DNA of 64,000 nt from Hyphomicrobiales bacterium (GTDB lineage Bacteria > Pseudomonadota > Alphaproteobacteria > Rhizobiales > Aestuariivirgaceae): assembly GCA_038251095.1 (NCBI GenBank), contig JBBSBQ010000018.1:159-64158 (forward strand), given 5' to 3'. How positions within the stretch are numbered: the first letter of the stretch is position 1; each line of letters begins with the position of its first letter. The notes under the pieces are model-generated. The model was not told the origin of the DNA. It saw nothing but the letters and a program-made list of their open reading frames with translations, and did no database searches. The position numbers were made by a program, and so were the translations under genes. Positions 1,397-46,345 of this stretch are shown here, piece after piece.

Positions 1397-2461
1397 TGAG
1401 GTTTGCAGAAACTGCATAAGATTTGATTCAGCCAAACTCAGGTTGCGCTTTCTTGGAGCGTCTTCGATATGCTCAAGCTCGCCTTTTTCAAAGCTCTCAA
1501 TGATCCGCGGATGGATGTAGCTTTTTCTGGTTACTGCCGGTGTGTTGGCAAGTTCTGTGCTGATTTTCCGTGCAACAGCCGCAACGGCGCGCCGTGCCGC
1601 AGCTGTTGTGTCCGGGTGTTCCAAACCCTGAAACTCGTTCAGCGCCACGGAAGATGCAAACAAGGTTCGAAAGTCCTTGGCGGTGATGGGTTTGCCCGAG
1701 CTTTGGGCAAGATATTGATTGAGGTCTCCCGCCGTCATGGGCCGGAAGCCATCGCTTGTTTTCAGTTTGAAGAGCCGCACCCCTGGATAAGTGCGGAGCT
1801 CTTTCAAGGCAGCGATAAGCAAGGGATCGCCACAGCTTTTCTCGATGTGTTTTCCACCCTTGCCGCGGAAGGCCAGATGAAAGCCATCGCTTTCCATTTT
1901 CAGGTGGCGCTTCAGCAGGGTTGAAACCCCTCTTCCGCCTTCGTCGCCCGCATAGGCCTCATGCCCGGCGCGCAGATGCAGGAGATCAACGATGCGGGCC
2001 GCAGCCGCCAAGGGCATATTCGCTGTGCCCTCGGTCAGGTCGCGCTTGATGCATGTCCGCAGGCGGCCCAGCACACTGCCGATTTGCGTAAGGCGAAAGG
2101 CCTTCGCGGCCGCTCTGACTTCAACCCATTCCGGATGGTAAATATATTGCAAACGTCCTGCCGCATCCCGTCCCACCGCCTGCAAATGCGCGTCTTTTTC
2201 AGTCGCAATGCGGACATCCGACCACGCCGGTGGAATGACCAGTTCAGCAATTCTTTTCAAATTGGAGCGGGAAATGCTGCGCTTGCCGTTATCTATATAG
2301 GAAAAGCTGGCGCCATTTTTCGAGCGCTTGATGCCGAGTTCGTTCGCCGTAATGCGGCGGATTCCTAGGAATTCGATGGCATTTCCCTCAACTGTCCCCG
2401 GTTCGTCCAAGCTTGCCACAATAGTCCCTCCGGCCGGAGCCCATAGCCCCACCCCTCCCAC
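1388..2461 (-). CDS. DNA topoisomerase IB (bacterial poxvirus-like type)
   Basis: Family-typical motifs: VIPPAWSDVRI, LRAGHEAYA, ITAKDFRT and a C-terminal RKSYIHPRI region with the catalytic Tyr. Confidence 0.8.
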   Translation of the reverse strand: MGGVGLWAPAGGTIVASLDEPGTVEGNAIEFLGIRRITANELGIKRSKNGASFSYIDNGKRSISRSNLKRIAELVIPPAWSDVRIATEKDAHLQAVGRDAAGRLQYIYHPEWVEVRAAAKAFRLTQIGSVLGRLRTCIKRDLTEGTANMPLAAAARIVDLLHLRAGHEAYAGDEGGRGVSTLLKRHLKMESDGFHLAFRGKGGKHIEKSCGDPLLIAALKELRTYPGVRLFKLKTSDGFRPMTAGDLNQYLAQSSGKPITAKDFRTLFASSVALNEFQGLEHPDTTAAARRAVAAVARKISTELANTPAVTRKSYIHPRIIESFEKGELEHIEDAPRKRNLSLAESNLMQFLQTSSG

Positions 2462-2642
2462 AACCTATAAACAACTCATCAAAGAAAGGTTCCCATTGAA
2501 GGGAAACTCAAAGGACGCCAGGAATTTCGGTTGAACGATTAACGCTAGGTTAATCACGTGCAGACGTTGATTCACCGGAGCTGATGGTTCCAGCCCAGGT
2601 ACTAAGCGTGTCGCTCGACAAAGCCCCTGACTTTCAGAACCG

Positions 2643-2888
2643 TCATTCCGCCTTCAGGCCGAGACCGCTCGCGGCGGCCACGATCCTTCCCGATGCCGCC
2701 GGGTCGTCAACGAAGGCCTCACGCGCCTTCCGGAACGCTTCCGCTGCAAACTCAGCCTCACCCAGCACGACGCGCGAACGCATGAGGCTGATCCAGCCGT
2801 CAACGTCCCGGGGAGAACTCTCCAGGCGTTGCGCCAGTCCATCGACCATCGAGCGGATTGCGGCGTCCTGCTCTTCCCCGGGCACCAC
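2643..2888 (-). CDS. CcmI/CycH-like C-terminal TPR module, in the same frame as 2919..3638
   Basis: The sequence AAIRSMVDGLAQRLESSPRDVDGWISLMRSRVVLGE matches the canonical CcmI C-terminal module. It is separated from the upstream ORF only by TAA at 2919-2921. Confidence 0.5.
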   Translation of the reverse strand: MVPGEEQDAAIRSMVDGLAQRLESSPRDVDGWISLMRSRVVLGEAEFAAEAFRKAREAFVDDPAASGRIVAAASGLGLKAE

Positions 2889-2918
2889 GCCGGGCAGGGA
2901 CGCGGTTGTTTCTGAATT

Positions 2919-3638
2919 TTAATGTCCGGAGGCTTTCGCCCTGGCCTCCTCAAAGGAGAGCTTGAGTTCAGCGGAACCTGGATCGAGTTTCCATGCCCTA
3001 CCAAAGGCTGCAGCAGCCTGTTCATAGCGCTCCGTATGAAAATAGGACCACCCGAGCATGCGCCATCCCTCAATATCCTGCGGCATGGTCTCGAGCCGAG
3101 TCGCCAGCCGTTCGGTCATCGCGTTCACATCGGGCAGGAGCTCGCCGACTGCCGCCTTGGACGGCGGATTTTCAGAGCCAATGGAACGCGCGTAATCCGC
3201 AAGCCGCGCAAGCATTTCACCATCGGGCTCCGAGAACGCGATTGCATCCTGTGAGCCTATTGCCTCCGGCGCACTCCTGTCATAAGAAACAGCCGCGCCG
3301 ATGCCTGACACAAGCAGGAAGGTCGCGGAAACGAGCAATAGTCTTTGCAGGTGGCCTTGAATGCCTTTGCCGGATCCCCAGTGCGGTGACGGCAAGCGGG
3401 AGAGGAGAGCAAGCCGCGCTGCGTCTGCTTCCGCGTCGGTGAGTTCTCCACTCTTTAGCCGCGCGCCGATATCTTCCAGAGAAGCTCGGTAGTTCTCCAA
3501 GTCGCGCTGCTTCCGCAAGCCCCTTGTCCCCATCAGAAAATGCAGCATAACTGGTATTGCCAAGGCAACAAAAAGCCAACCAAAAAAGTCAAAGACATCT
3601 TCCCCTCCCAGACTTCCAATGAAACTGTTCCTTCTCAA
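2919..3638 (-). CDS. CcmI/CycH-like cytochrome c maturation chaperone (two TM helices plus TPR)
   Basis: Two N-terminal TM helices flank a charged loop (YRASLEDIGARLKSGELTDAEADAARLALLSRL). A TPR-like module follows (MTERLATRLETMPQDIEGWRMLGWSY). The TTG start overlaps the upstream stop (TTGA). Confidence 0.6.
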   Translation of the reverse strand: MRRNSFIGSLGGEDVFDFFGWLFVALAIPVMLHFLMGTRGLRKQRDLENYRASLEDIGARLKSGELTDAEADAARLALLSRLPSPHWGSGKGIQGHLQRLLLVSATFLLVSGIGAAVSYDRSAPEAIGSQDAIAFSEPDGEMLARLADYARSIGSENPPSKAAVGELLPDVNAMTERLATRLETMPQDIEGWRMLGWSYFHTERYEQAAAAFGRAWKLDPGSAELKLSFEEARAKASGH

Positions 3639-5299
3639 AACTTTCTGCGAAGCTCCGCGCGGATGCCGAAGTTGTCCTCCTCGCCTTCGAGGATCTGAAA
3701 TGTCGCATCGGCGCGGAACAGCCAGGCCCGGTCGATCGGGACTTGATATCGGGCGCCGAAACCGTATTGCGCGTCCCCGGCGCCAATCCCGTCATCATCG
3801 AAGGCCTGCACCATGGCCATTTCGAAAACGAGTTGCTCGTCCAGATCGAAGAGATACTGCAAACCAATGGCGCCGCCCCAGGCATTGGAGCCGCTGTCGT
3901 CAAGTTTCGGGTAGCCGGTCAGGGCATCAGTTTCGAAGTTGATGCCGACGTTTTTCAGAATGCCCGCGCCATTGCCGTCGACCAGGGGCTGAGGGTTGCC
4001 AAAGCCGACGAAGAAGTTGGCATAGGGCAGCAGCGTGCTGGGCAAGCGTGTGATCAGGCTGTTTTCCGAAACGATTGCAAGCCCATCGTCATCGCCTTGC
4101 GGGTCTTCCCCGAAGTTTGCGAACACGCGGGTCGAGTTTGAAATTGTGTTGGAATAGCGCCGCGTGTAGGCACCTGTCAGGAAGTGTGTCAAAAGTCCCT
4201 CTTGATCGTCGCGGCCATCGATCAGCCCGTAGCCCGTCTCAATATAGCCACTGAAAGCATCGACGAAGGCGGTAGCGCCGAAAAGATTGGAGTTGTTGTT
4301 GTCGTCTCCGTCAGCTCCGATAATTCCGGCATTGTCGACATCATTGAATGCGGCGAACAGTGTGACGTCGAAATTTGCAAGGCCAAACGCCTGCGAATTC
4401 TTTGCCGGAAAAGACACCGCACCACCAAGTATCGCGTCGTTGGCCCAAATGCCGTTCTGCAGGAACAGTGGGAAGAGACCAACTGTGAAAGGCAAATCAA
4501 AGCTGGCCTCCCGCCCGGAAAATCCGGAATAGAGGGAGCCGAAATCACCCTCGAGAAACAACGTCTGCGGCTCGGGATCAAACTCGAAGTTTTCCTTCCC
4601 GTCGCCATCACTGCCACCGAATTCGAAGCGGGTGAATTGATTGTTCTTTTGAAGCGGCGTGAAGAAAGCGTGGATGCGTTCCGTGCCGGTGATCTTGAAG
4701 TCGACGTCGAGGTTCAGCCGCGTCGCGACCTGGGCAATGTCCTTGCCGTTGTTCTTGTTGTAGGCGAGCGCTGTCCGCCAGTCGCCGTAGATGGCAAGCC
4801 CCGGGAGCAGCGGATTTTTTTTGCCCAGCACGGTGCTGCTCTCGTCGTATGCACCGGACGTATATTGCTGGCGGCCCAGCTCAAGCAGCGGGCGTGGTGG
4901 ATCGACCGGTGTTTTGGCGCCATAAACATCGACCTGCCCCTGGGAATTGTAGCTGGTGTCGTACTGCGGGTCGGAGCGGAAAAGATCGCCCTTGCCGTCC
5001 TCGTTGCTGCCGATGTTTTCCCCTGCGCCTGTGGAACCGTCGTCAGACCTTTTTTCGGCACTTGCTTCTGCTTGCTGCGTATCGGCATGATTTTCGGGCG
5101 GGAAGAGTGATTCGCTGGATCTGAAAAGCGCTTGCCACACCCGAACCAATACGTTTCCCTCTTTGGTCTCGCTGCTGCTTGTGCCTGTCGCGGCTTCCGC
5201 CCTGGTATCGGACATCACAAGGCAACCGCAGGTCGCCATTACGGCTATGGCGGTCGATGCCCTGACAAGGTACGCATTACTCAACATACAAAACTCCAA
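3635..5299 (-). CDS. predicted outer-membrane beta-barrel protein (porin-like), function unknown
   Basis: Signal peptide, an acidic/Ser-Gly-rich N-terminal stretch, then long alternating amphipathic sequence. The C-terminus ...FGIRAELRRKF ends in Phe, a typical OMP beta-signal. Confidence 0.6.
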   Translation of the reverse strand: MEFCMLSNAYLVRASTAIAVMATCGCLVMSDTRAEAATGTSSSETKEGNVLVRVWQALFRSSESLFPPENHADTQQAEASAEKRSDDGSTGAGENIGSNEDGKGDLFRSDPQYDTSYNSQGQVDVYGAKTPVDPPRPLLELGRQQYTSGAYDESSTVLGKKNPLLPGLAIYGDWRTALAYNKNNGKDIAQVATRLNLDVDFKITGTERIHAFFTPLQKNNQFTRFEFGGSDGDGKENFEFDPEPQTLFLEGDFGSLYSGFSGREASFDLPFTVGLFPLFLQNGIWANDAILGGAVSFPAKNSQAFGLANFDVTLFAAFNDVDNAGIIGADGDDNNNSNLFGATAFVDAFSGYIETGYGLIDGRDDQEGLLTHFLTGAYTRRYSNTISNSTRVFANFGEDPQGDDDGLAIVSENSLITRLPSTLLPYANFFVGFGNPQPLVDGNGAGILKNVGINFETDALTGYPKLDDSGSNAWGGAIGLQYLFDLDEQLVFEMAMVQAFDDDGIGAGDAQYGFGARYQVPIDRAWLFRADATFQILEGEEDNFGIRAELRRKF

Positions 5300-5356
5300 G
5301 ACACTTTTTTCAAAACCATTGCGGATGCCCGATGGGAAATTCCCGGCTTTTCGGCA

Positions 5357-7177
5357 CTAATCCTTCACTTCAAGTTCCACCGCAAAGGCGTGGAAGTTCA
5401 TGATCCGCTCATTCATGCTTTGCTGCATGTCCTCGGTGGCTCGCACGAAACGCATGAAGTAGATCGGCTCGGACCGGCTCCGCATGCGGAAGGCGAGGCG
5501 GTACTTTCCCGGCTTGGTGATCAGTTTGCCCGGCACCTTGTACTTGGCAACCTTCTCGCCCAGCGGCGGCAGCGAGTGGTTTTCCATGCGCACCAGCGGT
5601 GGATGGTTGAGAACGGTCGTCGGAATCCCCGGTGGGCGCAGATGCGGCAGGGGATCGACGTCGAAATTCACCGGCAGATACATCTCGCGGTCCGTGCCCT
5701 TGACGTTGGTTGTCAGGAACTTTGTCTGGAAGTGCACCAACTGCTGGTCCGTTTTGATTTTGCCGGCCGCGACATCCAGGCTGTGCAGATCGGCCATGTC
5801 GCCATGACTGTCGATATAGCCCGACTCCCAGATGTTCTTGCCGGTGGGATCGATGAGGGCGACATTCACCCAGAGCTGCGGCTGCGCGCCCAGTGATCCG
5901 GACGGCAGGTTATGGCCCGGATTGGTGTTCTTGATCTTGTAGGAGAACGCTAGATCCTTGCCCACCTTCGGTTCACCCAAGATGTCGGGGCCGTCAACGG
6001 AACTGCCGTTTTCCAGAAGCTGCTGCCGGAGCTTGTCGCGCCCGTCTAGCTTCGCGAGGTTCTCGTCGATGAGTAGCCGAGCCTCTTCACGATCAAGCGG
6101 ATCGGCCCAGCGCTTGGGAAACTTGGCCTTGATCTTGCCGTCAGCGACTTTGTCCTCGAACACCGTCGTGCCCCAGCCGGCACGCCAGTCGAACCGCAGC
6201 CAATTCTTCATGCTGACGGATTGTGCCTTCGTATTGTGGGGGAAGATTCCGGGATGGGCGATTGAATAGCCTGGGCCCATGAACCTGTGGTTAGCATGCT
6301 TGCGTCCCGGATTTATTTTCTTGCCGCCCACCTCCGCCGAGGGTGCGGTCGCATAGCCTTTCGCCTTTCCTGGATCCTTGCCCATGTGGCAGTCCTGGCA
6401 GGTGACTCCGGCCTTGCGCGCCGGGCTGTCGCGATACTGCTCCCAGACGATCTCCAACTTGATTCCCAGATTGACGGCAACCTGGTGACAACTCACGCAG
6501 AATTCCGACTTGGTGATCTGGTCGTTTGAGATCATGCCCTTATGGATGTCGTTGCCCCGCCCGTCGGCGCTGGTCTTAACGGAATAGGTTTCCTTGTCGG
6601 CGAGAACGTCTTTGATCACGCTCTTTTGTCCGCTGCCGTAAACCGGCTCGTAAATCTTTCCCGGCTCGATCCGGCGCTCGCCGTTGACCTTGCCATATTG
6701 TTCGCTGACACGGTGGCAGGTTATGCAGGTCACGCCCTCGCGCGAGATCGGACTGTCCGCCCAAAGCGGCGTCTGGCGGGCCTCGCCGAGTTGGATGCCC
6801 ACCTGCTGGTGGCAGCGCACGCAGAAGGTACCCACCGTGCCTTGCGTCAGTTCTTGGAACTTCTGCTCGAATTTGTGGAACATGGGCGAGATCGACGAAT
6901 AGGCATGCTGCGATGAAGACCACTCTTCGTAAATCTGTTTATGGCACTCGCCGCATTTTTCAGCAGTGGGATAAAGGGAGAGCACGTCATCATTGACCGC
7001 GGCAACGGGAACTCCATTGCCGTCCACTGCGGCATCGGCAATGAAGGTTTGCTCGAAAACCGTGCTCATCAACAAAGCGCTCACGAACGCGCAGGAGAGC
7101 AATGAAATGCGGGATAATCTCTTCATTGGCGGCCTAATGGTCTTCAGAGTGGGCCGCCCCATTTTCAATTCGCTCAA
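5357..7177 (-). CDS. periplasmic pentahaem c-type cytochrome with a haem-free C-terminal domain of about 250 aa
   Basis: Signal peptide. Five CXXCH motifs: CGECH, CVRCH, CITCH, CVSCH, CQDCH. Confidence 0.8.
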   Translation of the reverse strand: MSELKMGRPTLKTIRPPMKRLSRISLLSCAFVSALLMSTVFEQTFIADAAVDGNGVPVAAVNDDVLSLYPTAEKCGECHKQIYEEWSSSQHAYSSISPMFHKFEQKFQELTQGTVGTFCVRCHQQVGIQLGEARQTPLWADSPISREGVTCITCHRVSEQYGKVNGERRIEPGKIYEPVYGSGQKSVIKDVLADKETYSVKTSADGRGNDIHKGMISNDQITKSEFCVSCHQVAVNLGIKLEIVWEQYRDSPARKAGVTCQDCHMGKDPGKAKGYATAPSAEVGGKKINPGRKHANHRFMGPGYSIAHPGIFPHNTKAQSVSMKNWLRFDWRAGWGTTVFEDKVADGKIKAKFPKRWADPLDREEARLLIDENLAKLDGRDKLRQQLLENGSSVDGPDILGEPKVGKDLAFSYKIKNTNPGHNLPSGSLGAQPQLWVNVALIDPTGKNIWESGYIDSHGDMADLHSLDVAAGKIKTDQQLVHFQTKFLTTNVKGTDREMYLPVNFDVDPLPHLRPPGIPTTVLNHPPLVRMENHSLPPLGEKVAKYKVPGKLITKPGKYRLAFRMRSRSEPIYFMRFVRATEDMQQSMNERIMNFHAFAVELEVKD

Positions 7178-7425
7178 GAAGAAGGCACTGGCACACTCTT
7201 CAAGATTGATGACAAAGTATGAATCTAAAAAACGGCCATCGTATGTCCGAGCGCTAGCAAAACTATGACGGACATAAAATTCCCGTTCAGAGCATCAATC
7301 GGAAATGATCCGTACAGAGAGAATAGGAGTCGAGAGGACGACATCACTCTCCCGCCAGATTGTCGCCGCAAAACAGACCATGTTTGGAGACGATACTTGC
7401 GAAAAGCCTTGCAGGGGATCAATCA

Positions 7426-8520
7426 ATGGCAATTCATCACCAGATAACCATCGATGGCCGAAGCTTTTTGGCTCCCGATGGCCAGTTGCTGTTGGACGCT
7501 GCCTTGAGCAACGGCATCGAGCTGCCACACGACTGCCGTGCCGGCCACTGCGGTACCTGCTGCGTGCGGCTGATATCCGGTGAAGTGCAAGGCGGCGAAG
7601 GCGCGGAACCGGGCATCGTGCATGCCTGTCAGTTCCGGATCGCCGGCGCCGCGGACATTGCGACTGAACAGCAATCGCGAGTTCGCTGTGTTGACGGCGT
7701 GGTGCATTCATTGCGCCGCCTGTCATCTGAAGTGATGGAGGTCGAAATCAGGATGGAGCAGGCCCTGCCCTATCTTGCTGGGCAATATGCCCAAGTGCGC
7801 TTCAGCGGCTATCCGAGCCGTCCCTTCAGTATTACTCATCCCTTGCGCACCTCGCAAAAGAATCAGAATGGCCGCTCGGTCTGGTTCCATGTCCGGCGCA
7901 TGCGGGATGGGCGCGTCTCCCCGTCGCTTGGAAAGCGAATCAGGCCGGGCCATCGGGTGAAGCTGACCGGCCCTTATGGTTCGGCGCATTTCCGGCCCAA
8001 TCTGCAAAGCCCCTTGATTCTCGTCGCCACCCACACCGGTTTTGCCCCGATCTGGTCTATCGCCGTTGCGGCGCTGCGGGAGAATCCGGAACGCGACATG
8101 ATGATTATCGCCGGTGGCCGTACCCTTGAGTCACTCTATATGTGGCCGGCTCTCGCGCGGCTTGCGACCTTTCCCAATGTCCATGTCGTGCCCGTATGCA
8201 GCACGCCACAGACTTTGATCCAGGCAGTGCAGCGCGGCCGGCCAACCGACTATCTGCCACCCCTGCTGCCGAGCGACGTGCTTTACGCATGCGGCGCTCC
8301 GGGTATGGTCGATGCGATTAAGGAAGTCGCTGCGCGCATTGGCGCGGTTTGCTATGCGGATCCGTTTCTGCCGACCACCGATGACAAAGTCGAAGAAACC
8401 GTTCTGGGCCGCACGACCAAGTGGCTTTCTGCCCTTACGCGGCGGACGGCGGGTTCGGCACAAGCTTATGGGATGGCTGAAGCAAGAGTAAGACGTGAAT
8501 ATCGCTCTCAAAGTGCATAG
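7426..8520 (+). CDS. 2Fe-2S ferredoxin / FNR-family FAD-NAD(P)H oxidoreductase fusion
   Basis: N-terminal plant-type ferredoxin motif CRAGHCGTCC...C. RPFSITHP (RxYS-like FAD site) and a THTGFAP NAD(P)-binding motif follow. The ATG at 7426 is preceded by AGGGGA; the track ORF starts earlier at 7360. Confidence 0.8.
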   Translation: MAIHHQITIDGRSFLAPDGQLLLDAALSNGIELPHDCRAGHCGTCCVRLISGEVQGGEGAEPGIVHACQFRIAGAADIATEQQSRVRCVDGVVHSLRRLSSEVMEVEIRMEQALPYLAGQYAQVRFSGYPSRPFSITHPLRTSQKNQNGRSVWFHVRRMRDGRVSPSLGKRIRPGHRVKLTGPYGSAHFRPNLQSPLILVATHTGFAPIWSIAVAALRENPERDMMIIAGGRTLESLYMWPALARLATFPNVHVVPVCSTPQTLIQAVQRGRPTDYLPPLLPSDVLYACGAPGMVDAIKEVAARIGAVCYADPFLPTTDDKVEETVLGRTTKWLSALTRRTAGSAQAYGMAEARVRREYRSQSA

Positions 8521-9559
8521 CTTTTGGCCAACCGGGTTCAGGTTCAGCATCCGGTTTTCCGTACTTTGTCTCTACGGTTGTTTAATGCTCCTCGGCTTTG
8601 CCGCGGACGGCGCGGTTGCGTCCGATCCGGCTAGGATCGTGGGCGCAAATGCTTGTGCCGAATGCCATAAGCAGGAAGCTGAGGCGTGGAAGGGTACGCA
8701 TCACTTCAAGACCTTCAGTGAAATGCCGCGCAAAGCCCCGGCCAAACAAATTTCGGAAAAGATGGGTCTGCGGCGCATCAAGGCGGAAAGCGTCTGCTTG
8801 AACTGCCATTTCACGGTGCAGCAGAAAAATAACAAGCCGGAAATCGTCTCCGGTATCTCCTGCGAATCCTGCCACGGCGCCGCCCGGGATTGGATCAAGG
8901 TGCACAGCGGGTTCAGCGGCAAGACGGCAAAGACCGAGACCAAGGCCGAGGAGGATGCCCGCTGGAAGCTCGCCGAATCAAAAGGGATGATCAGGCGGCA
9001 CTCGCTCTACCAGCTGGCGAAGAACTGCTACGGTTGCCATGTCGTGCCGCAAGAGGCTCTGGTGAACAAGGGTGGCCACAAGCCCGGAAGCGCTTTCGAG
9101 CTGGTGTCCTGGTCGCAAGGAGAAGTGCGGCACAACACCTGGTATTCCCAAGGCAAGGAAAATGTCGCCGCGAACGCCGCGCGCAAACGCATGCTCTATC
9201 TCGTCGGTCTTGGCGTCGAGCTTGAGACTGGTTTGCGCGCCATCGGAAAAGCGACCGCCAGAAAAACCTACGCCTTTGAAATGGCGAAACGCGTCGACCG
9301 GGCGCGCAAGGAACTCGCCGCCGCAGCGATTGCGGCGCCGGAGGTGCCGGAAATCGCTGAGATGGTCAAATTGGCGCATTCAGCCGGGCTGAGGCTGAAA
9401 AATAACCAGAAGCTGACGGCTGCTGCCGATGGCGTTTCCAAGCTCCTCGTGAACATCACCGCAAAGTATGACGGCAGCACCATGGCCGGGCTGGACGGCT
9501 TGGTTCCCAAATCTGACAAGTTCAAGGGCACGGCGAGAAAAGCGGGCGCAGTCGATTGA
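8495..9559 (+). CDS. periplasmic tetrahaem c-type cytochrome
   Basis: Hydrophobic N-terminus. Four CXXCH motifs: CAECH, CLNCH, CESCH, CYGCH. The start is uncertain (GTG 8495 or ATG 8585). Confidence 0.75.
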   Translation: MNIALKVHSFWPTGFRFSIRFSVLCLYGCLMLLGFAADGAVASDPARIVGANACAECHKQEAEAWKGTHHFKTFSEMPRKAPAKQISEKMGLRRIKAESVCLNCHFTVQQKNNKPEIVSGISCESCHGAARDWIKVHSGFSGKTAKTETKAEEDARWKLAESKGMIRRHSLYQLAKNCYGCHVVPQEALVNKGGHKPGSAFELVSWSQGEVRHNTWYSQGKENVAANAARKRMLYLVGLGVELETGLRAIGKATARKTYAFEMAKRVDRARKELAAAAIAAPEVPEIAEMVKLAHSAGLRLKNNQKLTAAADGVSKLLVNITAKYDGSTMAGLDGLVPKSDKFKGTARKAGAVD

Positions 9560-9593
9560 AAAACCACTGCAAGGGTAATGCGCGGAGGACAGC

Positions 9594-10487
9594 GTGAGGG
9601 CGCGAGCGTCTGATGCCTTAATCGGCGGGAGCGGTCTGGCCGTGGCGGGATATGTCATCAACCGCGCAGTCCTCGGCCTTTTGATTGCGGCTCTATCTGG
9701 CGGCCTGTTCTGGCTCGTCTGGATCTACGGCAATGGGCTCCGTGATCCCCGCTACCTCGATGGCTGGGTGCTGGCCGGCGGCATGGCCCTGCAGGTCTGC
9801 TTTCACATCGTCAAAACCTTTAGCGTGTCGCCGAAATCGGCCACGCGCTGGCGGAAGATTCATATTTTTGCCGGCTATCTGGTGATCGCCGCCTTCATTT
9901 CGCATTCGGATTTCACGCTGCCAGACAGCGGCTTCGAATGGGCCCTGTGGACTGGGTTTGTGCTGGTGACGCTGAGCGGCATCCTCGGCACCTATCTTGC
10001 CTGGTCGCAACGGGCGAAGAGCCGGGTCGATGAAGGCATCAGCTATGACCGCATCCCGGCGCTGCGCGCCGAGCTGGAGATTGCGTTTCTCCGCGCCATC
10101 GCCGAGACCGATCCGTCCGCCGCTGCGATCGATCTGCCGGGGCTGCCCCACGACGCCTGGATTACCGAACTCTACTCCACCCATCTCGGCGACTTCTTCC
10201 AGGGGCCGCGGAATTTCACCGCCCATCTCATCGGCTCGCAACGCCCGCTCAAACGGCTGACCGGCGCAATCGACAACCTGTCACGCTATGTCGATCAGCC
10301 GCGCCAGGCGAAGCTTGCCTATATCAAGACCTTGGTGGCGGAAAAAGACCGGCTCGATTTCGCCCGCGTCTCTCTCGGGCTTACCAGGGGTTGGCTGTTC
10401 GTGCACGTGCCGGTCACCTATGCACTGATCGTGTTGACGGTGCTGCACGTGCTCGTCGTCTACGCCTTTTCATCGGGTGTCTGGTGA
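9594..10487 (+). CDS. integral membrane protein with about five TM helices and conserved-looking intramembrane His residues; possible b-type cytochrome
   Basis: Hydrophobic segments containing His: CFHIV, KIHIFAGY, FISHS, FVHVPV, VLHVLV. A soluble loop of about 115 aa precedes the last helix. The b-haem assignment is inference only. Confidence 0.55.
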   Translation: MRARASDALIGGSGLAVAGYVINRAVLGLLIAALSGGLFWLVWIYGNGLRDPRYLDGWVLAGGMALQVCFHIVKTFSVSPKSATRWRKIHIFAGYLVIAAFISHSDFTLPDSGFEWALWTGFVLVTLSGILGTYLAWSQRAKSRVDEGISYDRIPALRAELEIAFLRAIAETDPSAAAIDLPGLPHDAWITELYSTHLGDFFQGPRNFTAHLIGSQRPLKRLTGAIDNLSRYVDQPRQAKLAYIKTLVAEKDRLDFARVSLGLTRGWLFVHVPVTYALIVLTVLHVLVVYAFSSGVW

Positions 10488-12958
10488 TGGCTTCCCGGCG
10501 CGACCAACTTACTGTGCTGCTGGCGCTCGTAACCGCCATCTGCTTGGGTTCGGCCATTTTTTTCTCCAACGGCACACAGTTGCTCATGCCGGGGCCGCTT
10601 ACGAGCGGGCACGCCGCGATCGAAAATTGCAACGCCTGCCATACCAAGAGCGGCAGCAACAAACTGAGCTGGCTCCACGGCCTTGTCGCCGCCGACCCGC
10701 TTGCCGACAGTAAGGCTTGCCTGACCTGCCACAAAATGCCGGCCACGGCCTTCAACCCGCACGGGGCGGCAGCCGAAGTGCTGGAGCAAAGCACCAGGCG
10801 GCTGACCAGGATCGCTGCGGGTACGACAGCGCCGCGATCAGCGGTCGCGCAGAGCATCGCATTCCCGATGAAAGATGTCATCGCGGGCGGCCTCTATTGC
10901 GCCACCTGCCATCAGGAGCATCAGGGCGCGAGCTTCAACCTGCACAAAATTTCTAGCGAGAAATGCCGCTCGTGCCACGTTGTGAAGTTCGACAGCTTTG
11001 ACGGCGATCACCCGGCCTTCGAAAACTATCCGTTCAAGCGGCGGACGCGAATTATCTACGATCATGCCAGCCATTCCGGCAAGTACTACCCGGACTTGGC
11101 AAAAAAGGATCCAGCAACGCGCACCCCGGCAACCTGCTCGGCCTGTCACAACAGTAACAACGACAGGCGGGTCATGGCCGTGGCGCCTTTCGATCAGATC
11201 TGCGCCTCTTGCCATCTCGGCCAGATCATCGGCAAAGAGCGGGTCAGCGGCCCCAAAGGCATTGCCTTCCTCACTCTGCCAGGCCTCGATCTGGAAACGC
11301 TGAAGAAGAAAAATGCCTCTATCGGGGAATGGCCGGACGGGTCCGATGCCGCGCTGACGCCATTTATGAAGCTGATCATGAACCGGAATGAAAAAGGCCG
11401 CGGGCTGGTCAAGGCGGTGGACGGCCTGAACCTCCTGGATCTTGCCACTGCGAGCGACAGTCAGATCAAGGCGGTGACGGATCTGGCGTGGGAGATCAAA
11501 GGGCTGTTCCATGCACTGATCAAGGGAAAGGCATCAGACGTGCTGGGCAATCTCAGTGCTGGCGACGGGGCGAAACTGAATACGGCTCTCATTTCCGATC
11601 TGACCGCAGGCATTCCCCGTGATGCCGTCATCGGCGCTCAGCAGGAGTGGCTCCCCAATCTCGCAGCGGAAATGACCGGTGGCCCGGTTACGCTTCCCGA
11701 AGCGCCGTCCGGTTCCAATGCGGTTCAGGCAGTTCCGATCCCCTCGCCACAGGAACCGCAGAGTGCGGCGGCAGTCGAAACCAATTCCTCCGACAGCGAG
11801 CCCCCCGAAACTGAGTCCGTTGGCACAGAACCTGCCGGTGCTGAGAAAACAGTCTGCGCCGATGAACCACCTCGCGCCGAGAATATAGCCGCGACGGATG
11901 AAGTGGCGCCGGATTCTGAAGACGAGCCTGAGACCGGGGAGAGTGGAGAAACACTCAGCGCCGAAGAACAACTGGCGGCGGTCAAGGGACGCCTGCCTCT
12001 GCCCAACGGAACCCCGCGCGCCATCAAGACCCGCATCGAGAACGCCAGGAAGAAAAAGCCGCATGAAGAAGCGGAGGCCAAGGCCGAGGGCGCAAAGGTA
12101 GTGCCCTGCACCGACGAACAGCCGCGCCCCGATGCGGCCGGAGAAACCGAAGCTGCTGAGGCCAACGCCAATGAAGGCACCGAAGCGCCCTCCGCCGGGG
12201 GACAGGCTGCCGCCGATACGACAGAGCAATTCGATGATCTGCTCTTCCCCACCGGGTCTGAGAAAGCAGGCCGGACTGAAGAAGCGGATCCCGCTTCAAA
12301 AACCGAAGGCAAGACGCCAGCCGACGCGCTGCCGGAGGCAAACACTGCGCCGCCTGCCCCACAAGTCCAGGCGGCTCCCACGACCGGCATCGAAAGCGAC
12401 GTGGATCCGGAGACCTGGGCTGAATATGGCGGCTGGTATCGGCAGGACTACACGCTTTATTACCGCCCCACCGGCCACAAGGACAAGTTCGTCCAGTCCT
12501 GGCTCGTTCTGACCTGGCCGCAAGCGCCAACGGGCGGCACGAGCCCGGCAGCGGCGGTCTTCGATTACCTCATCGGCAAGGACGCGCAGGGCTCATGCAC
12601 AAAATGCCACAGCGTTGACGATATCCGGGGCAAAGGGCGGGTGGTCAATTTCTCCCCGGCCTCGGTCGCGAACAAACATGGGCGGTTCACGCATTTCATC
12701 CACGAGCCGCATATGGGCATCATGGATAACCGCGGTTGTCTTACCTGCCATGACCTTGAAAGGAACCGCCCCTATCTCAAGAGTTACGAGCAAGGCAACG
12801 CATGGAAATTTACAGCCAACTTCGGCGCAGTGAAGAAGGAGCTCTGCCAGGGCTGCCACACCAGCGGCGTGGCCCGCCAAGACTGCTTGCTGTGCCACAA
12901 ATATCATGTGAACGGCGTGGCCACGCCTGTCATGAACACAAAAATTCCGGCTCAATAG
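10487..12958 (+). CDS. decahaem c-type cytochrome with a long acidic low-complexity linker
   Basis: Ten CXXCH motifs, six N-terminal (CNACH, CLTCH, CATCH, CRSCH, CSACH, CASCH) and four C-terminal (CTKCH, CLTCH, CQGCH, CLLCH). The ATG at 10487 overlaps the upstream TGA (TGATG). It is followed by a TM/signal segment. Confidence 0.8.
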   Translation: MASRRDQLTVLLALVTAICLGSAIFFSNGTQLLMPGPLTSGHAAIENCNACHTKSGSNKLSWLHGLVAADPLADSKACLTCHKMPATAFNPHGAAAEVLEQSTRRLTRIAAGTTAPRSAVAQSIAFPMKDVIAGGLYCATCHQEHQGASFNLHKISSEKCRSCHVVKFDSFDGDHPAFENYPFKRRTRIIYDHASHSGKYYPDLAKKDPATRTPATCSACHNSNNDRRVMAVAPFDQICASCHLGQIIGKERVSGPKGIAFLTLPGLDLETLKKKNASIGEWPDGSDAALTPFMKLIMNRNEKGRGLVKAVDGLNLLDLATASDSQIKAVTDLAWEIKGLFHALIKGKASDVLGNLSAGDGAKLNTALISDLTAGIPRDAVIGAQQEWLPNLAAEMTGGPVTLPEAPSGSNAVQAVPIPSPQEPQSAAAVETNSSDSEPPETESVGTEPAGAEKTVCADEPPRAENIAATDEVAPDSEDEPETGESGETLSAEEQLAAVKGRLPLPNGTPRAIKTRIENARKKKPHEEAEAKAEGAKVVPCTDEQPRPDAAGETEAAEANANEGTEAPSAGGQAAADTTEQFDDLLFPTGSEKAGRTEEADPASKTEGKTPADALPEANTAPPAPQVQAAPTTGIESDVDPETWAEYGGWYRQDYTLYYRPTGHKDKFVQSWLVLTWPQAPTGGTSPAAAVFDYLIGKDAQGSCTKCHSVDDIRGKGRVVNFSPASVANKHGRFTHFIHEPHMGIMDNRGCLTCHDLERNRPYLKSYEQGNAWKFTANFGAVKKELCQGCHTSGVARQDCLLCHKYHVNGVATPVMNTKIPAQ

Positions 12959-13167
12959 CCGCGCGCCCAATCAGCAAATCGCGGTGGATGCAGACCGCTG
13001 CGAACCTGCTTTTGTATCCAATTCCCTGATAACCGGAAAAATAAAGCGGAAGGCATCAGGCATCGAGATACCCATTATGCGCAATTCAGCCCCAGAGCGT
13101 GCGGGCTCACAAGTATTTTGCACGCTTCTCGCGCCAGAAAATAATTCCAGTTAGCAGGAATAAATGA

Positions 13168-13183
13168 CTGGCGGAGAGGGAGG
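13168..13183. repeat. 16-nt exact copy of the 3' end of tRNA-Ser(CGA) (CTGGCGGAGAGGGAGG); att-like island boundary
   Basis: Identical to 35653-35668 in the same orientation. A further 12-14 nt or so are partly similar to the T-arm. Confidence 0.6.
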
Positions 13184-13598
13184 CCTTAGAATTTCCCAAT
13201 CATCTATATGATATTACAGAATTTTTGCGACGCAACTGGAGGTTCATCCTAGCATTCATCCTAGTTTCGGCGCTGGCTCGTGGCAATCATTGGCGGACGT
13301 CAACGTTCGTTTATGCAGGATAAAGTGGCCCTACATTCGTAGATTGCTCTCTGTTCAAATATATGTTGCACCTGGTGAAGCCGTTGCCCTTTGAGCCTTA
13401 ACTGCCTTCAGCTTCAAGCCTGATTGGTCCGATCGTGTGAACAAAGCAGACATCGTGTGAGGATCGCCTGATTTCCGTTTTTGACCCAGAGCGGACATTC
13501 ATTAGCCATATGCCCTCTCTCAAGAGTTAAGTTCAGAGGTACTTGTTCAGGATTTAGATTATTTGGTTGCGACTTTCAGCCAACCAGAAGGATTCATT

Positions 13599-13994
13599 CT
13601 AATCCGCTTCTAAAATCGCGCGCACGTCGCTTTCTCGGAATGGCTTATCAAGTACACCTATGAGCCGTAAATCAAATCGCTTGGCAAATTGCTCCGCTCC
13701 CTTGAGAGCATCAATCTTCGCGCCGCTCATCAAGACAATCGAGGATTTTATCTGATGACTGAACAAAAAGTCTAGAACCTGCAGGCCGTCCATCTCGGGC
13801 ATGTTCATATCGATGAAGATTATGTCAGACTCTGTCATATCATCAAGGTGCGCGGATTTGGCCCGCGTTGTGGTCAATACCTTGTAACCAAAATTACTAA
13901 GCATTCGAGCCATTAACAGACAGAAAGCCTCCTCGTCATCAATGACGAGCACCTTTCGGGCGGTCATCAATTTTGGGAATTTCTGTAACATCAT
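13599..13994 (-). CDS. response-regulator receiver domain, probably the second REC of the upstream hybrid kinase
   Basis: VLVIDDEE...IIFIDMNMPEMDG...VLMSG...LDKPF. The ORF's upstream extension encodes the missing end of the preceding REC domain. Confidence 0.7.
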   Translation of the reverse strand: MMLQKFPKLMTARKVLVIDDEEAFCLLMARMLSNFGYKVLTTTRAKSAHLDDMTESDIIFIDMNMPEMDGLQVLDFLFSHQIKSSIVLMSGAKIDALKGAEQFAKRFDLRLIGVLDKPFRESDVRAILEAD

Positions 13995-14043: not shown

Positions 14044-16695
14044 TTACGCAATGCGAGGGCCAGATCGCTTTTTCGGTAAGGTTTGTTCAACAAGTTGCAC
14101 GCTCACCGGCGGGCCACCGTCGCCATTGAGTTTAGTCTCGGGGTAGCCAGAGGTCAGGAGTACTTTCAAATCCGGCCATCGGGATGTGGCCTTCAGTGCC
14201 AGATCGTAACCGCTGATGCCGCCCGGCATCATGATATCGGTGAACAGAAGATTAACCGGTTCGCTCTCGAGGATCTTGAGGGCCGCGTTTCCGTCTTCGG
14301 CCTCAAGCACACGATAGCCAAGCTCACCCAGCTGGCGCACCACTACGCGGCGCAGGCCGACATTGTCTTCTACGGCCAGCACAGTCTCGTGGCCACCCTG
14401 TTCGGATACGGCCACCGTCTCAGGCGCCATCGCCTCTCGGTCAGCCGTGGCGCGTGGCAGATAGAGGCGGAACGTCGTGCCGTGACCCACTTCGCTGTAG
14501 ACAGTGATGTGCCCAGAGGACTGCTTCATGAAACCGAAGACCATGCTGAGGCCGAGACCGGTGCCCTTACCTTGCCCTTTAGTGGTGAAAAACGGCTCGA
14601 AGATTTGGTTAAGCATTTCCGGCTCGATGCCGGTGCCGGTATCGCTGATCTCGATCAAGGCATAGTTGCCCGGAGTAAGTTCTGGGTGTAAAGCAGAATA
14701 GTCGTTATCCAAGTATCGATTGCTTGTCGCAATCATCAGGATGCCTCCACTCGGCATGGCGTCGCGCGCATTATTGCAGATATTGATCAGGCTTGCGCTG
14801 AGTTGCGAAGGATCAGCATCCACCGGCCAGATATCCGTTCCAAGCTCAAGCTTAATTGTTATATCCGTGCCTAACGTTCGACTCAGAAGTTTACTAATAC
14901 CTTCGACAAGATCGTTCACAACTACGCGTTGCGGGCGCAGTGACTGGCGGCGTGCGAAGGCAAGTAGACTTTTGGTCAGATCCGAACCCCGCAGCGCTGC
15001 CTCAAGTGCCTCACTTGCAAGCTGGTCGATTCCTGGATCTAACGCAGCACCGCCAATCTTCTGGCCGCGTAGGAGATCGAGATTTCCAATTATAATGCCA
15101 AGCAGATTGTTGAAGTCATGGGCAACCCCCCCTGTTAAGTTGCCAATCGCTTCCATTTTCTGTGCATGGACAAGCTGGCGCGCTCCTTCACGGACTGAAA
15201 CTTCTAACCTTACGCGCTCAATATGGGCCCAAGAACGCTCGGTCACCTCACTTAGGATCGCGAGGTCGCTTGTGCTCCAGATTCTTGGCTTACGGTCATG
15301 AACTGCCATAAGCGCTGTCAAGCGGCCATCCTTGACCAGGGGCATGCAGATGGTTGCGGCAATGCCGATATTCTGAAAGGTCGCGGCCTCCTCGGGCGCA
15401 AGTTCGGCGAGGTTGTCATTCACAACAAGCGGCAGTCCTGCTCCAAGGTTCTTGACGGCGAGTCGGCCAAAATCGGCAAGGCTATAGTAACCAATAATAC
15501 TGGGGGATCCCTCCGCACTCCAGTCGCCCCGGATGGTAAAATGATCCTGATCGAGTTCCATATCGGCATAGGCGCAGATGGCGACATCGAGATGTTCGCC
15601 CATCATGCGTGTCGAAATAGCGAGGATCTCTGCTGCATCGAAACTCTTGGCCGTCTCCTTGCCAAGGGCATCAAGGAAGCGATGCCGTGCCTCACTCTCG
15701 TGGAGCACAGCTTCCGTCTTGTGGTGTTCGGTTATATCTTCGGAGATTGAGAGAAGATACTTCGGTCTCCCGTGATCGTCGGGAACCGCCATCTTCATGG
15801 TTCGCAAGAGGCGTGTCCCTTGATTTCGAGTGTCTATCGGTTCCGCGGGGGTAGTGTGAAGTCCGCCCACCCGCAAAACCTCCCGATCACGTGAAACGAA
15901 GAAGTCGGCTTGTTCTTTTGGGACGAAATCGTAGTCGGACTTGCCAATAAGCTCACTTCGATCCATGCCCAGTAGCTCTTCGCCGGCATGGTTGACAAAT
16001 ACAATGCGGAAATCCAACGCGTCCTTCACAAGGACCATTGCGGGGATGTTCTCGATCATCAGATTATGAAAAGTGCTTTCATTCCTTAGGAGAACTTCTG
16101 CCTTCTTTCGCTCCAAAATTTCAGTCTGCAGTTCAATTGAACGTGCGACGAGTTTCTTCTCAAGCCTTGCGTATTCTTTGGCCTGAATCCCTAACGCCCC
16201 GTCGGATCGAGGAGGGAGCGTCCCGACATTGAGTTGTTCTTGCGATGTTTCGGACACCGATTCACAAACCAGCGGTGGAGCACCTTCGGTGAGATCTTCA
16301 ACCTGGTGAATGATCCACAAGATTTCATCATTCTGATCGAGGATAGGCGCATTGACCTGGCTCCAGTAGCGCGCTTCAAAGACGTTCCCAGCGGAGCCGG
16401 GTAGCGGAATGTCATATTTTTGCTTGGACAACTTATCGGGACGCCGGTGTAGTAATACGCGCTCGAGCGAAGCTCGCGAACTGCTGACGCCGGTAGCGGT
16501 TGGATCGTTTGGGTTGCCCGGAAACACATCGAAAAATCCTAGACCTAGTATTTTTTCAGGTACAGTGAACGTTGCGTCACAATAGGCATCACTGGCGGTG
16601 ACGATGTTAAAGTCTGGAGTTAGAACAAGGTAAAGCTTGGGGGAACCCTCAAAGAGAGTCTGAAACTCAGAAGATGAATCAAAGCGACGTGTCAT
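14044..16695 (-). CDS. cytoplasmic PAS/GAF hybrid sensor histidine kinase (HisKA-HATPase-REC)
   Basis: PAS-like N-terminal repeats, then the H-box GGVAHDFNNLL, the G-boxes DTGTGI and GTGLGLS, and a REC domain (VLAVEDN...FTDIMMPGG...LLTSGY). There are no TM segments. Confidence 0.85.
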   Translation of the reverse strand: MTRRFDSSSEFQTLFEGSPKLYLVLTPDFNIVTASDAYCDATFTVPEKILGLGFFDVFPGNPNDPTATGVSSSRASLERVLLHRRPDKLSKQKYDIPLPGSAGNVFEARYWSQVNAPILDQNDEILWIIHQVEDLTEGAPPLVCESVSETSQEQLNVGTLPPRSDGALGIQAKEYARLEKKLVARSIELQTEILERKKAEVLLRNESTFHNLMIENIPAMVLVKDALDFRIVFVNHAGEELLGMDRSELIGKSDYDFVPKEQADFFVSRDREVLRVGGLHTTPAEPIDTRNQGTRLLRTMKMAVPDDHGRPKYLLSISEDITEHHKTEAVLHESEARHRFLDALGKETAKSFDAAEILAISTRMMGEHLDVAICAYADMELDQDHFTIRGDWSAEGSPSIIGYYSLADFGRLAVKNLGAGLPLVVNDNLAELAPEEAATFQNIGIAATICMPLVKDGRLTALMAVHDRKPRIWSTSDLAILSEVTERSWAHIERVRLEVSVREGARQLVHAQKMEAIGNLTGGVAHDFNNLLGIIIGNLDLLRGQKIGGAALDPGIDQLASEALEAALRGSDLTKSLLAFARRQSLRPQRVVVNDLVEGISKLLSRTLGTDITIKLELGTDIWPVDADPSQLSASLINICNNARDAMPSGGILMIATSNRYLDNDYSALHPELTPGNYALIEISDTGTGIEPEMLNQIFEPFFTTKGQGKGTGLGLSMVFGFMKQSSGHITVYSEVGHGTTFRLYLPRATADREAMAPETVAVSEQGGHETVLAVEDNVGLRRVVVRQLGELGYRVLEAEDGNAALKILESEPVNLLFTDIMMPGGISGYDLALKATSRWPDLKVLLTSGYPETKLNGDGGPPVSVQLVEQTLPKKRSGPRIA

Positions 16696-34363: not shown

Positions 34364-34380
34364 TTTGCCAACTCAACCAG

Positions 34381-46001: not shown

Positions 46002-46345
46002 CAGCTTCCAAAACTCATTCTTAAAATCGCGTAAAGTGCCGCCACGCCGGCAGCTGCCGTGAACAGTGTATTGAGCAGAAGGCTAGCGCGAAGCATACGC
46101 TCGTCATGCACGTAATCCTCAAGCACCATCTCCATGCCAAGCCGCATGTGCCAGAGAATGGAGGCAAATGACAGCACAAGCAGGATTGCATTAAGGGGAT
46201 TCTGCACGCTCGCCACCACATCCGCCCGCGCCGCACCCAGATGCGAAACGATGAACCACAGCAAAAACAAAACCAGCGGCACATTGGCAACGGCCGTTGC
46301 GCGCTGCTGCCAGAAATGCCGCGTGCCTGATTTGTCCGGAGTCAT
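46001..46345 (-). CDS. sdhD: succinate dehydrogenase membrane anchor subunit
   Basis: Three-TM protein between sdhC and sdhA. ATGA overlap with the sdhC stop. Confidence 0.8.

Follow-up and report, generated by a model that had tools for sequence, protein, structure and literature searches.

Porin–cytochrome gene clusters of the PCC4 type were defined by He, Barco, Emerson & Roden in 2017 (Front Microbiol 8:1584, PMC5566968) as comprising a porin, three periplasmic cytochromes (4, 5, and 10 haem sites), an inner-membrane protein of five transmembrane (TM) helices with two WX3HX13H motifs (on TM3 and TM5) and an SGXXG motif on TM4, and other redox proteins. Subgroup I is of the Hyphomicrobium type, mostly from freshwater (and soil), with its genes in divergent directions, no iron–sulfur (Fe–S; pfam13247) gene, and a rearranged reductase, whereas most of subgroup II comes from marine settings; the cluster was found in Zetaproteobacteria that oxidise Fe(II), in an enrichment of pyrite-oxidising Hyphomicrobium, and in Fe/Mn-removing drinking-water filters (PMC5566968). 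In 2024, Elbon, Stewart & Glass (bioRxiv 10.1101/2023.11.21.568154) named the ptdABCDEFG operon, noting its homology to cytochrome c552 and assigning as products a porin (PtdB), an FAD/NAD(P) oxidoreductase (PtdC), a tetrahaem cytochrome (PtdD), a ferric-reductase-like TM protein (PtdF), and a decahaem cytochrome (PtdG); its hosts are marine Alpha- and Gammaproteobacteria, Nitrospina/Nitrospirales, Planctomycetes, and others, and ptdAB is well transcribed in an oxygen-deficient zone. Our literature search found no later paper testing the function of PCC4/ptd. The locus described here occupies positions 2643–12958 of a 64-kb stretch of DNA (contig JBBSBQ010000018.1; referred to at its whole length as the window) from a member of the Hyphomicrobiales. 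Its architecture, together with homology to metagenome loci in which the complete published set of genes is found, identifies it as a copy of PCC4 subgroup I, that is, of the ptd cluster, in an Aestuariivirga-like host.

Each of the defining features of PCC4 subgroup I that was tested is present in the locus, namely the haem counts, the adjacency of the porin gene, the PtdF motifs, the reductase, the lack of an Fe–S gene, and the divergence of the genes, and there is no architectural difference from that subgroup. The host differs, being Aestuariivirga-like instead of Hyphomicrobium, and a CcmI-like gene, linked to the cluster in 68/82 related loci and disrupted here, is unmentioned in those parts of the text of He et al. 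that were consulted. The likeness to the ptd cluster extends to PtdA (pentahaem plus β-sandwich, c552-related), PtdB, PtdC, PtdD, PtdF, and PtdG, all of which are encoded in the window, whereas PtdE (cyclic-nucleotide-binding plus 2×[4Fe–4S]) is not; in addition, the ferredoxin domain of PtdC is N-terminal here and C-terminal in the published protein, the genes form two divergent operons here and one colinear operon there, and the lineage of the window is mostly non-marine, whereas the paper lists saline habitats only. A reading made earlier from the letters of this DNA and its open reading frames (ORFs) alone, hereafter the sequence-only reading, had regarded the locus as an uncharacterised trans-envelope electron conduit. 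The implied novelty is lost, the exact architecture having been published as PCC4 in 2017 and again as ptdABCDEFG; the feature itself is real and its parts were rightly described, and the locus is a further member of a cluster published twice. What the present analysis adds to the published accounts is PtdA as the conserved core, the constant adjacency of PtdA and PtdB, the match of a low-confidence PtdB model to ~18-stranded channels, the constant presence of the reductase in two domain orders, the anchor and tether of PtdG, and the lesions of the CcmI-like gene.

The features of the locus are as follows, gene starts having been judged by the gene calls on an independent assembly with identical sequence (L001) and by signal peptides.

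2643–3638, minus strand: CcmI/CycH-like membrane protein, disrupted, in pieces 2919–3638 and 2643–2888
3635–5299, minus strand: PtdB, the PCC4 porin, a 554-aa ORF; likely start ATG 5287, giving 550 aa
5357–7126, minus strand: PtdA, periplasmic pentahaem cytochrome; likely start ATG 7126, giving 589 aa (ORF extends upstream to 7177)
7127–7425, no strand: divergent intergenic (promoter) region between ptdA and ptdC, ~299 bp
7426–8520, plus strand: PtdC, cytoplasmic reductase with Fer2, FAD, and NAD(P)H domains; likely start ATG 7426, giving 364 aa (ORF from 7360)
8495–9559, plus strand: PtdD, periplasmic tetrahaem c554-like cytochrome with a helical C-terminal extension; 4 CXXCH, Cytochrome_C554
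9594–10487, plus strand: PtdF, five-TM inner-membrane protein with two predicted haems b and invariant His pairs
10487–12958, plus strand: PtdG, decahaem cytochrome with an N-terminal hydrophobic anchor; likely start ATG 10487, giving 823 aa (ORF from 10391)
12979–13003, plus strand: terminator-like hairpin directly 3′ of ptdG, with a 9-bp stem and a T-rich tail

The ORF list and translations contain all seven genes where the sequence-only reading had placed them, and its total of 19 haem-binding motifs is exact (5 in PtdA, 4 in PtdD, and 10 in PtdG). Only 20 CXXCH motifs occur in the 221 open frames of ≥100 aa of the window, and 19 of these 20 lie in the three cytochrome genes, a concentration that is no chance effect. 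The two overlaps described at gene boundaries are likewise present in the sequence, TGATG at 10485–10489 in the plus operon and TTGA at 3638–3635, and the PtdB ORF (3635–5299) begins 57 bp downstream of the PtdA ORF (5357–7177). The back-to-back layout of the two operons stands, whereas the later starts of PtdA and PtdC make the shared intergenic region 7127–7425, of ~299 bp, instead of the ~250 bp (7178–7425) first assumed; similarly, the ORFs of 606 aa (pentahaem cytochrome) and 554 aa (barrel, ending in RRKF) exist as described, with likely starts that shorten the proteins to 589 and 550 aa.

The cluster is conserved as a unit far beyond this genome. Database relatives numbered 3562 for PtdA at E ≤1e-5, the best 120 being 75–100% identical, and 1627 for PtdB, with 66–100% identity. 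In a scan of one genome per species with two strict peptide patterns, PtdA relatives were found in 510 species-level genomes, the best 80 of which are Hyphomicrobiales (Aestuariivirga, Hyphomicrobium, Rhodomicrobium, and Rhodobiaceae); closest to the window are Aestuariivirga metagenome-assembled genomes (MAGs; loci L003 and L006) at 91% identity. The order PtdG-F-D-C, divergent region, PtdA-B is retained on every contig of sufficient length, with synteny in ~70 Hyphomicrobiales species; over 82 Hyphomicrobiales loci, PtdA was counted in 82, PtdB in 81, PtdC in 73, PtdD in 74, PtdF in 72, PtdG in 72, and the CcmI-like protein in 68, and the back-to-back ptdA/ptdC arrangement recurs in 66 loci. 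An alignment of 10 distant barrels, used as query, brought in a further 80 metagenome loci. Most of these are colinear (PtdD, a gap of 1.6–2.0 kb, PtdF, PtdG, PtdA, PtdB), with PtdA directly upstream of PtdB, and the colinear loci include the full D-E-F-G-A-B-C set homologous to the window proteins. The ptdA and ptdB genes are adjacent in 81/82 Hyphomicrobiales and 76/80 metagenome loci, the other four metagenome cases being at contig ends. The neighbourhood comparison proposed with the sequence-only reading thus reveals a co-conserved module with a component for each compartment of the envelope, in both the 82 Hyphomicrobiales and the 80 metagenome loci. The flanking genes (topoisomerase IB and rhomboid) are not common to related loci, which also marks the cluster as a self-contained module.

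The PtdD–PtdF gap separates the two subgroups. It measures 34 bp in the window and a median of 61 bp in the Hyphomicrobiales loci, of which 0/69 have a Fer4-bearing ORF in it, against 17/28 of the metagenome loci; in locus L106, the single subgroup II locus examined in this respect, the gap gene (PtdE) encodes cNMP_binding and 4Fe–4S dicluster (Fer4_11) domains. In three other subgroup II loci (L145, L161, and L087), the PtdF open frame extends ~2.5 kb upstream, which points to a fusion or in-frame overlap of PtdE with PtdF there; a fusion or overlap of the same kind was noted for Oceanospirillum beijerinckii (He et al., PMC5566968). The haem motifs are retained on both sides of this divide: five CXXCH in 82/82 (Hyphomicrobiales) and 52/54 (metagenome) PtdA homologues, four in 69/70 and 37/37 PtdD homologues, and ten in 54/68 and 32/33 PtdG homologues, the shortfall in the first (GTDB) set of PtdG being due to locus truncation. 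Identities between the window and subgroup II loci amount to 55–65% for PtdA, 41–51% for PtdB, 26–38% for PtdD, 21–32% for PtdF, and 24–32% for PtdG; judged by these values, PtdA is by far the most conserved part and the predicted functional core of the cluster.

Cultured carriers recovered in the species scan are Hyphomicrobium facile DSM 1565, Hyphomicrobium sp. 2TAF46 and LHD-15, and Rhodomicrobium sp. R_RK_3, and the published ptd accession listing adds Roseibium aggregatum and Tistlia consotensis (bioRxiv 10.1101/2023.11.21.568154). A tblastn search of PtdA against a plasmid collection returned only remote relatives of ~22% identity and gave no link to the named ptd hosts. Two relatives of 82–83% identity carry unexpected labels, a PtdB assigned to Woeseiaceae (Gammaproteobacteria; P0199) and a PtdA assigned to Alteraurantiacibacter (Sphingomonadales; L071); both are from short-contig MAGs, and their placement is due to mis-binning or else to a recent horizontal transfer.

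PtdA has a cleavable signal peptide and no membrane anchor, and its five CXXCH motifs (ORF residues 75, 119, 151, 227, and 260) precede a large haem-free C-terminal half that includes a β-sandwich. Pfam assigns Cytochrome_C554 and other multihaem families, a Cytochrom_NNT match being limited to residues 220–270. In the PDB, its sequence has only three relatives: the pentahaem c552 of Thermochromatium tepidum (5ZE8, E 2.4e-6), to which the relationship is distant, MccA, and an unnamed cytochrome c. The 5ZE8 match spans haems 1–3, weaker matches cover haems 4–5 and the His-x-x-Pro-x-Gly loop of the immunoglobulin (Ig)-like domain, and an invariant His-bearing loop of PtdA falls at the position of PHAMPTG in c552. 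The best NCBIfam model is ExtKL (NF040886), with 40.5 bits against a cut-off of 250 bits. ExtKL of Geobacter, now MccSep, is a periplasmic polysulfide reductase with a five-haem cap and an Ig-like stem, the active site of which is haem 2 with a distal Cys and a selenocysteine (Sec) on a loop of the Ig-like domain, and it was compared structurally to T. tepidum c552 (bioRxiv 10.1101/2025.11.18.688581). PtdA is not an MccSep, because the mature protein contains no Cys outside the five CXXCH motifs and none is conserved among 31 diverse PtdA sequences. The alignment of the same 31 sequences shows long invariant blocks running through the haem-free half (GHNLPSGSLGAQP, KFLTTN.KGT.REM, and RAEPIYFM), and overall PtdA resembles an enzyme-type protein more than it does a wire. 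The AlphaFold2 (AF2) models of PtdA and PtdB were built from alignments of close relatives only (70–90% identity); that of PtdA has a predicted local distance difference test (pLDDT) score of 39.9 with only the β-sandwich confident, and its Foldseek matches, generic β-sandwiches only, were discarded. A reading of PtdA as a lipoprotein, with LLSC as the lipobox, was also rejected, the Cys lying inside the hydrophobic core of the Sec signal peptide and not being conserved in subgroup II.

PtdB matches no Pfam family (at E up to 10) and no PDB sequence, and no signal of Pfam MtrB_PioB (PF11854) was found in 41 members of the PtdB family at E ≤10. Its signal peptide is followed by ~100 disordered N-terminal residues and these by the conserved barrel core, which spans ~450 aa and closes with G-x-R-x-E-x-R-x-K-F, a terminus conserved across the family. 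A search of a barrel profile against 1.84 billion representative proteins delineated a family of 712 clusters at 50% identity, 228 of them at E <1e-30, sharing signal peptides, the conserved core of ~450 residues, and a variable N-terminal extension. None of the full-length sequences among 150 family representatives contains CXXCH, and there are no fusions to cytochromes; the sole apparent case, with three motifs, is a partial match without the C-terminal barrel motif (P0387) and was rejected. Foldseek with the low-confidence AF2 model of PtdB (pLDDT 38.7, ~18 strands by DSSP) returned outer-membrane porins exclusively, in keeping with the prediction of a 554-aa outer-membrane barrel. The best matches are 18-stranded (Campylobacter jejuni MOMP, Occ/OprD, AlgE, and LamB; target-normalised template-modelling scores 0.55–0.61), and MtrB is not in the 50 best matches of the same low-confidence model. 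These matches weakly suggest that PtdB is a barrel of solute-channel size.

The cytoplasmic 2Fe–2S/FNR-type reductase recognised by the sequence-only reading is integral to the set. PtdC combines the Pfam domains Fer2, FAD_binding_6, and NAD_binding_1, with the plant-type [2Fe–2S] domain N-terminal, has no signal peptide, and finds its best NCBIfam match, below cut-off, in a BenC-like model; the motifs CX4CX2C, RPFS (RxFS), and CGAPGM (CGxxxM) are intact. In L106, the reductase encoded after PtdB is ordered FAD, NAD, Fer2, opposite to PtdC of the window, a difference that He et al. describe as separating the two subgroups (PMC5566968); the cofactor set, not a particular gene, therefore appears to be kept. 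PtdF contains WX3HX13H twice (W86-H90-H104 and W267-H271-H285) and SGXXG (S128-G129-x-x-G132), the His and Gly residues of which are invariant in 24 homologues; the His pairs sit at opposite ends of TM3 and TM5, and a soluble domain of ~120 aa separates TM4 from TM5. No significant Pfam family was found for PtdF and no PF01794, the only match being a weak one to DUF4079 (E 0.0084). Its description as a "His-rich" membrane protein does not hold, there being only 8 His in 297 aa, four of them invariant, though. PtdD matches Cytochrome_C554 (Pfam, E 3.6e-17) and Nitrosomonas c554 (1BVB, E 3.6e-9). PtdG, with Paired_CXXCH and MtrC-domain-type Pfam matches, begins with a hydrophobic anchor at its N-terminus and continues with six haems in one domain, a helical region, a linker, and a C-terminal four-haem domain. 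The linker comprises ~250 acidic, Pro/Ala/Glu/Thr-rich residues in the window, and the distance from haem 6 to haem 7 ranges from 90 to 618 aa across homologues; from this variation, the inter-domain spacer looks like a variable tether.

The explanation that we regard as best, with a probability of roughly one in two, is that this PCC4 subgroup I cluster exports electrons of NAD(P)H, without quinones, to a terminal reductase, PtdA, at the PtdB channel. In the predicted route, cytoplasmic PtdC would pass electrons from NAD(P)H via FAD to its [2Fe–2S] cluster and would dock on the cytoplasmic domain of PtdF (~120 aa, TM4–TM5), where PtdE may dock in subgroup II. By the positive-inside rule, H90 and H271 of PtdF are expected near the cytoplasmic face and H104 and H285 near the periplasmic face, so placed that two stacked haems b may carry the electrons across the inner membrane, bypassing the quinone pool, in a split module like that of NOX/FRE or Fre-MsrQ. 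In the periplasm, the anchored decahaem PtdG, with a flexible tether between its two haem domains, and the soluble tetrahaem PtdD would act as relay, and the electrons would end at PtdA as the terminal reductase, working at or under PtdB, an ~18-strand channel that may either admit the substrate or be plugged by PtdA. We take PtdA as the terminal reductase served by PtdB because it is the most constrained part of the cluster and because MccSep is an enzyme. Since such a chain would avoid the quinones and be expected to dissipate membrane potential, a role in detoxification, acquisition, or redox balancing is more likely than energy-conserving respiration. A more specific proposal, tentative and with the odds somewhat against it, is that PtdA, a distant relative of c552 in sequence, represents a novel type of multihaem reductase of the periplasm without Cys/Sec chemistry, fed directly from cytoplasmic NAD(P)H by the split, quinone-independent NOX-like module PtdC–PtdF and coupled to its own outer-membrane channel, and that PCC4/ptd is not a wire for extracellular electron transfer.

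Several observations weigh against electron export to a reductase. Small barrels can serve extracellular electron transfer, as in Cyc2 and Geobacter OmbB. Neither the strand count of PtdB nor the fold of PtdA is firm, because both AF2 models are poor (pLDDT 39–40). The alignment of 31 PtdA sequences contains six invariant non-motif His residues for five haems; all haems could accordingly be bis-His-ligated, as in a pure electron carrier. Finally, He et al. proposed the opposite direction, uptake of electrons to the quinone pool, and counted Fe(II)-oxidising Zetaproteobacteria and Fe/Mn-removing filters among the hosts and habitats of PCC4 (PMC5566968).

The main rival, which we consider unlikely, is the outward conduit of the Mtr/Pcc type favoured by the sequence-only reading and by Elbon et al., in which a haem protein or part of one, such as the stem of PtdA or the C-terminal tetrahaem domain of PtdG, sits in PtdB and insoluble or extracellular Fe(III), Mn(III/IV), or humics are reduced. 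The presence of a component in every compartment together with 19 c-haems, the strict pairing of porin and cytochrome genes, and the unusual conservation of both the PtdB loops and the haem-free half of PtdA, as expected of a tight complex, are all in its favour, as is the transcription of ptdAB in an oxygen-deficient zone with Fe reduction (bioRxiv 10.1101/2023.11.21.568154). It is weakened, however, by the barrel model, the best matches of which are ~18-stranded channels with MtrB outside the first 50, by the missing MtrB_PioB signal at E ≤10, and by the enzyme-like character of PtdA, which at ~590 aa in two domains is not a thin MtrA-like wire. Moreover, no extracellular or lipoprotein cytochrome is predicted in the cluster, as was also the case in He et al. 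(PMC5566968), and an NAD(P)H-fed bypass of the quinone pool conserves no energy, which would be odd for respiration.

The electron uptake proposed by He et al., by which the porin is the site or passage for oxidation of extracellular or periplasmic Fe(II) or Mn(II) and electrons pass via the cytochromes and the di-haem membrane protein to the quinone pool, appears distinctly improbable. It would explain the occurrence of PCC4 in Fe(II)-oxidising Zetaproteobacteria, the pyrite-oxidising Hyphomicrobium enrichment, and Fe/Mn-removing filters, and the di-haem membrane protein does resemble quinone-reacting cytochrome b subunits (PMC5566968). Yet the cytoplasmic NAD(P)H/FAD/[2Fe–2S] reductase, a constant member of the set, would have no function in it, nor would PtdE of subgroup II, and among the hosts are many that live as ordinary heterotrophs, methylotrophs, or nitrite oxidisers. 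Inward electron transfer to NAD(P)+ would have to overcome the redox potential as well as the membrane potential. If Fe(II) were to reduce NAD(P)+ via a simple di-haem protein, the reaction would be uphill in both respects with no coupling device, and outward flow is therefore favoured over uptake. Least probable of all is a NOX-like reduction of O2 to superoxide or peroxide (e.g., to oxidise Mn(II) indirectly), or an activity as peroxidase or detoxifier of NO/NH2OH in the periplasm, which would suit the split FRD-type module with its NOX/FRE logic, the two c554-like components, and hosts such as Mn-depositing Hyphomicrobium, nitrite oxidisers, and nod-expressing bacteria of oxygen-deficient zones, but for which 19 c-haems and a dedicated porin are unneeded, the substrates being small and freely diffusing, and no open-coordination haem was evident.

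The CcmI-like gene at the end of the minus operon is damaged in this genome. Its main piece (2919–3638, minus strand) matches Pfam TPR_CcmH_CycH with E 9.5e-10 and 39 bits, just below the cut-off of 42 bits, and the sequence indicates two hydrophobic (TM) helices and two periplasmic TPR-type repeats. In five close relatives (L003–L007), the gene starts at a conserved Shine-Dalgarno sequence and ATG, the equivalent of which in the DNA alignment is ATG 3598–3596; compared with these relatives, the window has a 1-nt deletion near 3587/3588, 11 nt after this ATG. The TTG overlapping the porin stop is in frame only because of this deletion, so that the overlap (TTGA), although it exists, is probably an artefact as a gene start. 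In addition, an in-frame TAA at 2921–2919 interrupts the gene where the relatives read on to a continuous protein of ~330 aa, and the 81-aa ORF at 2643–2888 is its severed C-terminus with the C-terminal repeat. Either the gene has become a pseudogene here or the assembly is in error; at the lesions, the sequence of the Logan assembly L001 is identical. The suggestion of a specialised maturation need met by a CcmI paralogue is weakened: the gene is co-conserved in this subgroup, but in this genome it has a frameshift and a nonsense codon.

In the divergent region, a sigma-70 pattern scan (2400–13900) found no site within 7127–7425, a result of little weight in either direction; inspection by eye likewise revealed no box of the Fur, Irr, RirA, or FNR type, and Rfam reported no family and no riboswitch in the ptdA/ptdC intergenic region. 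A palindrome search over the ptdC–ptdA intergenic regions yielded three enriched patterns, two of which were rejected as lying inside the coding region of the PtdA signal peptide. The third, TGGTCA-N5-TGACC with the consensus CATCATGGTCAGACAATGACCGTTTGA, occurs in 24/66 of the Hyphomicrobium-type divergent promoter regions (L015–L080; for example, near position 302 of L028) and is absent from the window and its closest Aestuariivirga relatives; it is probably an operator for a regulator. Downstream of ptdG, the segment 12960–14040 is AT-rich (GC 0.46 against ~0.58–0.62 in the flanks) and contains all five sigma-70-like matches of the scan; it separates ptdG from a hybrid kinase of PAS-GAF-HisKA-HATPase-receiver type at 14044–16695 (minus strand).

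The remaining window is ordinary chromosome, with genes for an oligopeptide ABC transporter, LigD and Ku, aconitase, SdhA, and acetyl-CoA synthetase, together with hemC, a HemY-like gene, two tRNAs, and an insertion sequence (IS) integrase. Its LigD–Ku pair for non-homologous end joining lies at 31886–35247 (minus strand), and the IS-type integrase (rve) at 62522–63436 stands beside a tRNA at 62053–62125. The sole CXXCH outside the cluster is in a 106-aa open frame at 46024–46341 (minus strand), directly upstream of the SdhA-like gene (44202–46001). No ccm or nitrogen-oxide genes were found among the 20 largest ORFs of the window, the smaller ORFs not having been scanned.

The cluster is widespread, occurring in soil and freshwater Hyphomicrobiales, marine Alpha- and Gammaproteobacteria, Nitrospina/Nitrospirales, Planctomycetes, and Zetaproteobacteria, and the existence of cultured hosts makes its function testable. 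If electrons of NAD(P)H indeed cross both membranes or reach a new periplasmic enzyme, the cluster would add a new system to the cycling of metals, nitrogen, or sulfur, and if PtdA is the reductase, PCC4/ptd would represent a widespread NAD(P)H-driven periplasmic reductase system.

The proposed role of the cluster is worth comparing with three groups of known systems. With the Mtr/Mto/Pio systems and the Geobacter Pcc systems, it shares multihaem cytochromes encoded beside an outer-membrane barrel, for which a trans-envelope path has been proposed. The dissimilarity from MtrCAB and PioAB/MtoAB stressed by the sequence-only reading is nonetheless substantiated, since there is no decahaem of the MtrA/DmsE family (TIGR03508, decahem_SO: 18.7 bits for PtdG and 36.6 bits for PtdA against a cut-off of 192.2) and no MtrB_PioB signal. 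PtdG, with 823 aa and a 6 + 4 split of its haems, differs from MtrA (~300–350 aa), and PtdB, with ~18 strands in its low-confidence model, differs from MtrB/PioB (24–32 strands). The window also has neither a surface lipoprotein cytochrome nor a quinol dehydrogenase of the CymA/NapC or Cbc type, the input being an NAD(P)H reductase; in particular, the lack of a membrane-anchored NapC/CymA-type protein noted earlier is confirmed, PtdA having a cleavable signal peptide. With MccSep and c552, PtdA appears to share five c-haems in an N-terminal cap followed by a β-sandwich domain, but it is ~150 aa longer, lacks the distal Cys ligand and any Sec/Cys, and is always paired with a porin. With NOX/FRE and Escherichia coli Fre-MsrQ, the cluster shares, in its predicted route, the sequence of NAD(P)H, flavin, a TM domain with two haems b (His residues 13 apart), and an acceptor at the outer face, a likeness limited to the logic of the bis-His motifs; in the window, the dehydrogenase is a separate protein with an added [2Fe–2S] cluster, the membrane protein has five TM helices instead of six and no Pfam Ferric_reduct match, and the acceptor is a chain of 19 c-haems. 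Should the proposed export of electrons prove true, PCC4/ptd would be a bacterial counterpart of NOX/FRE.

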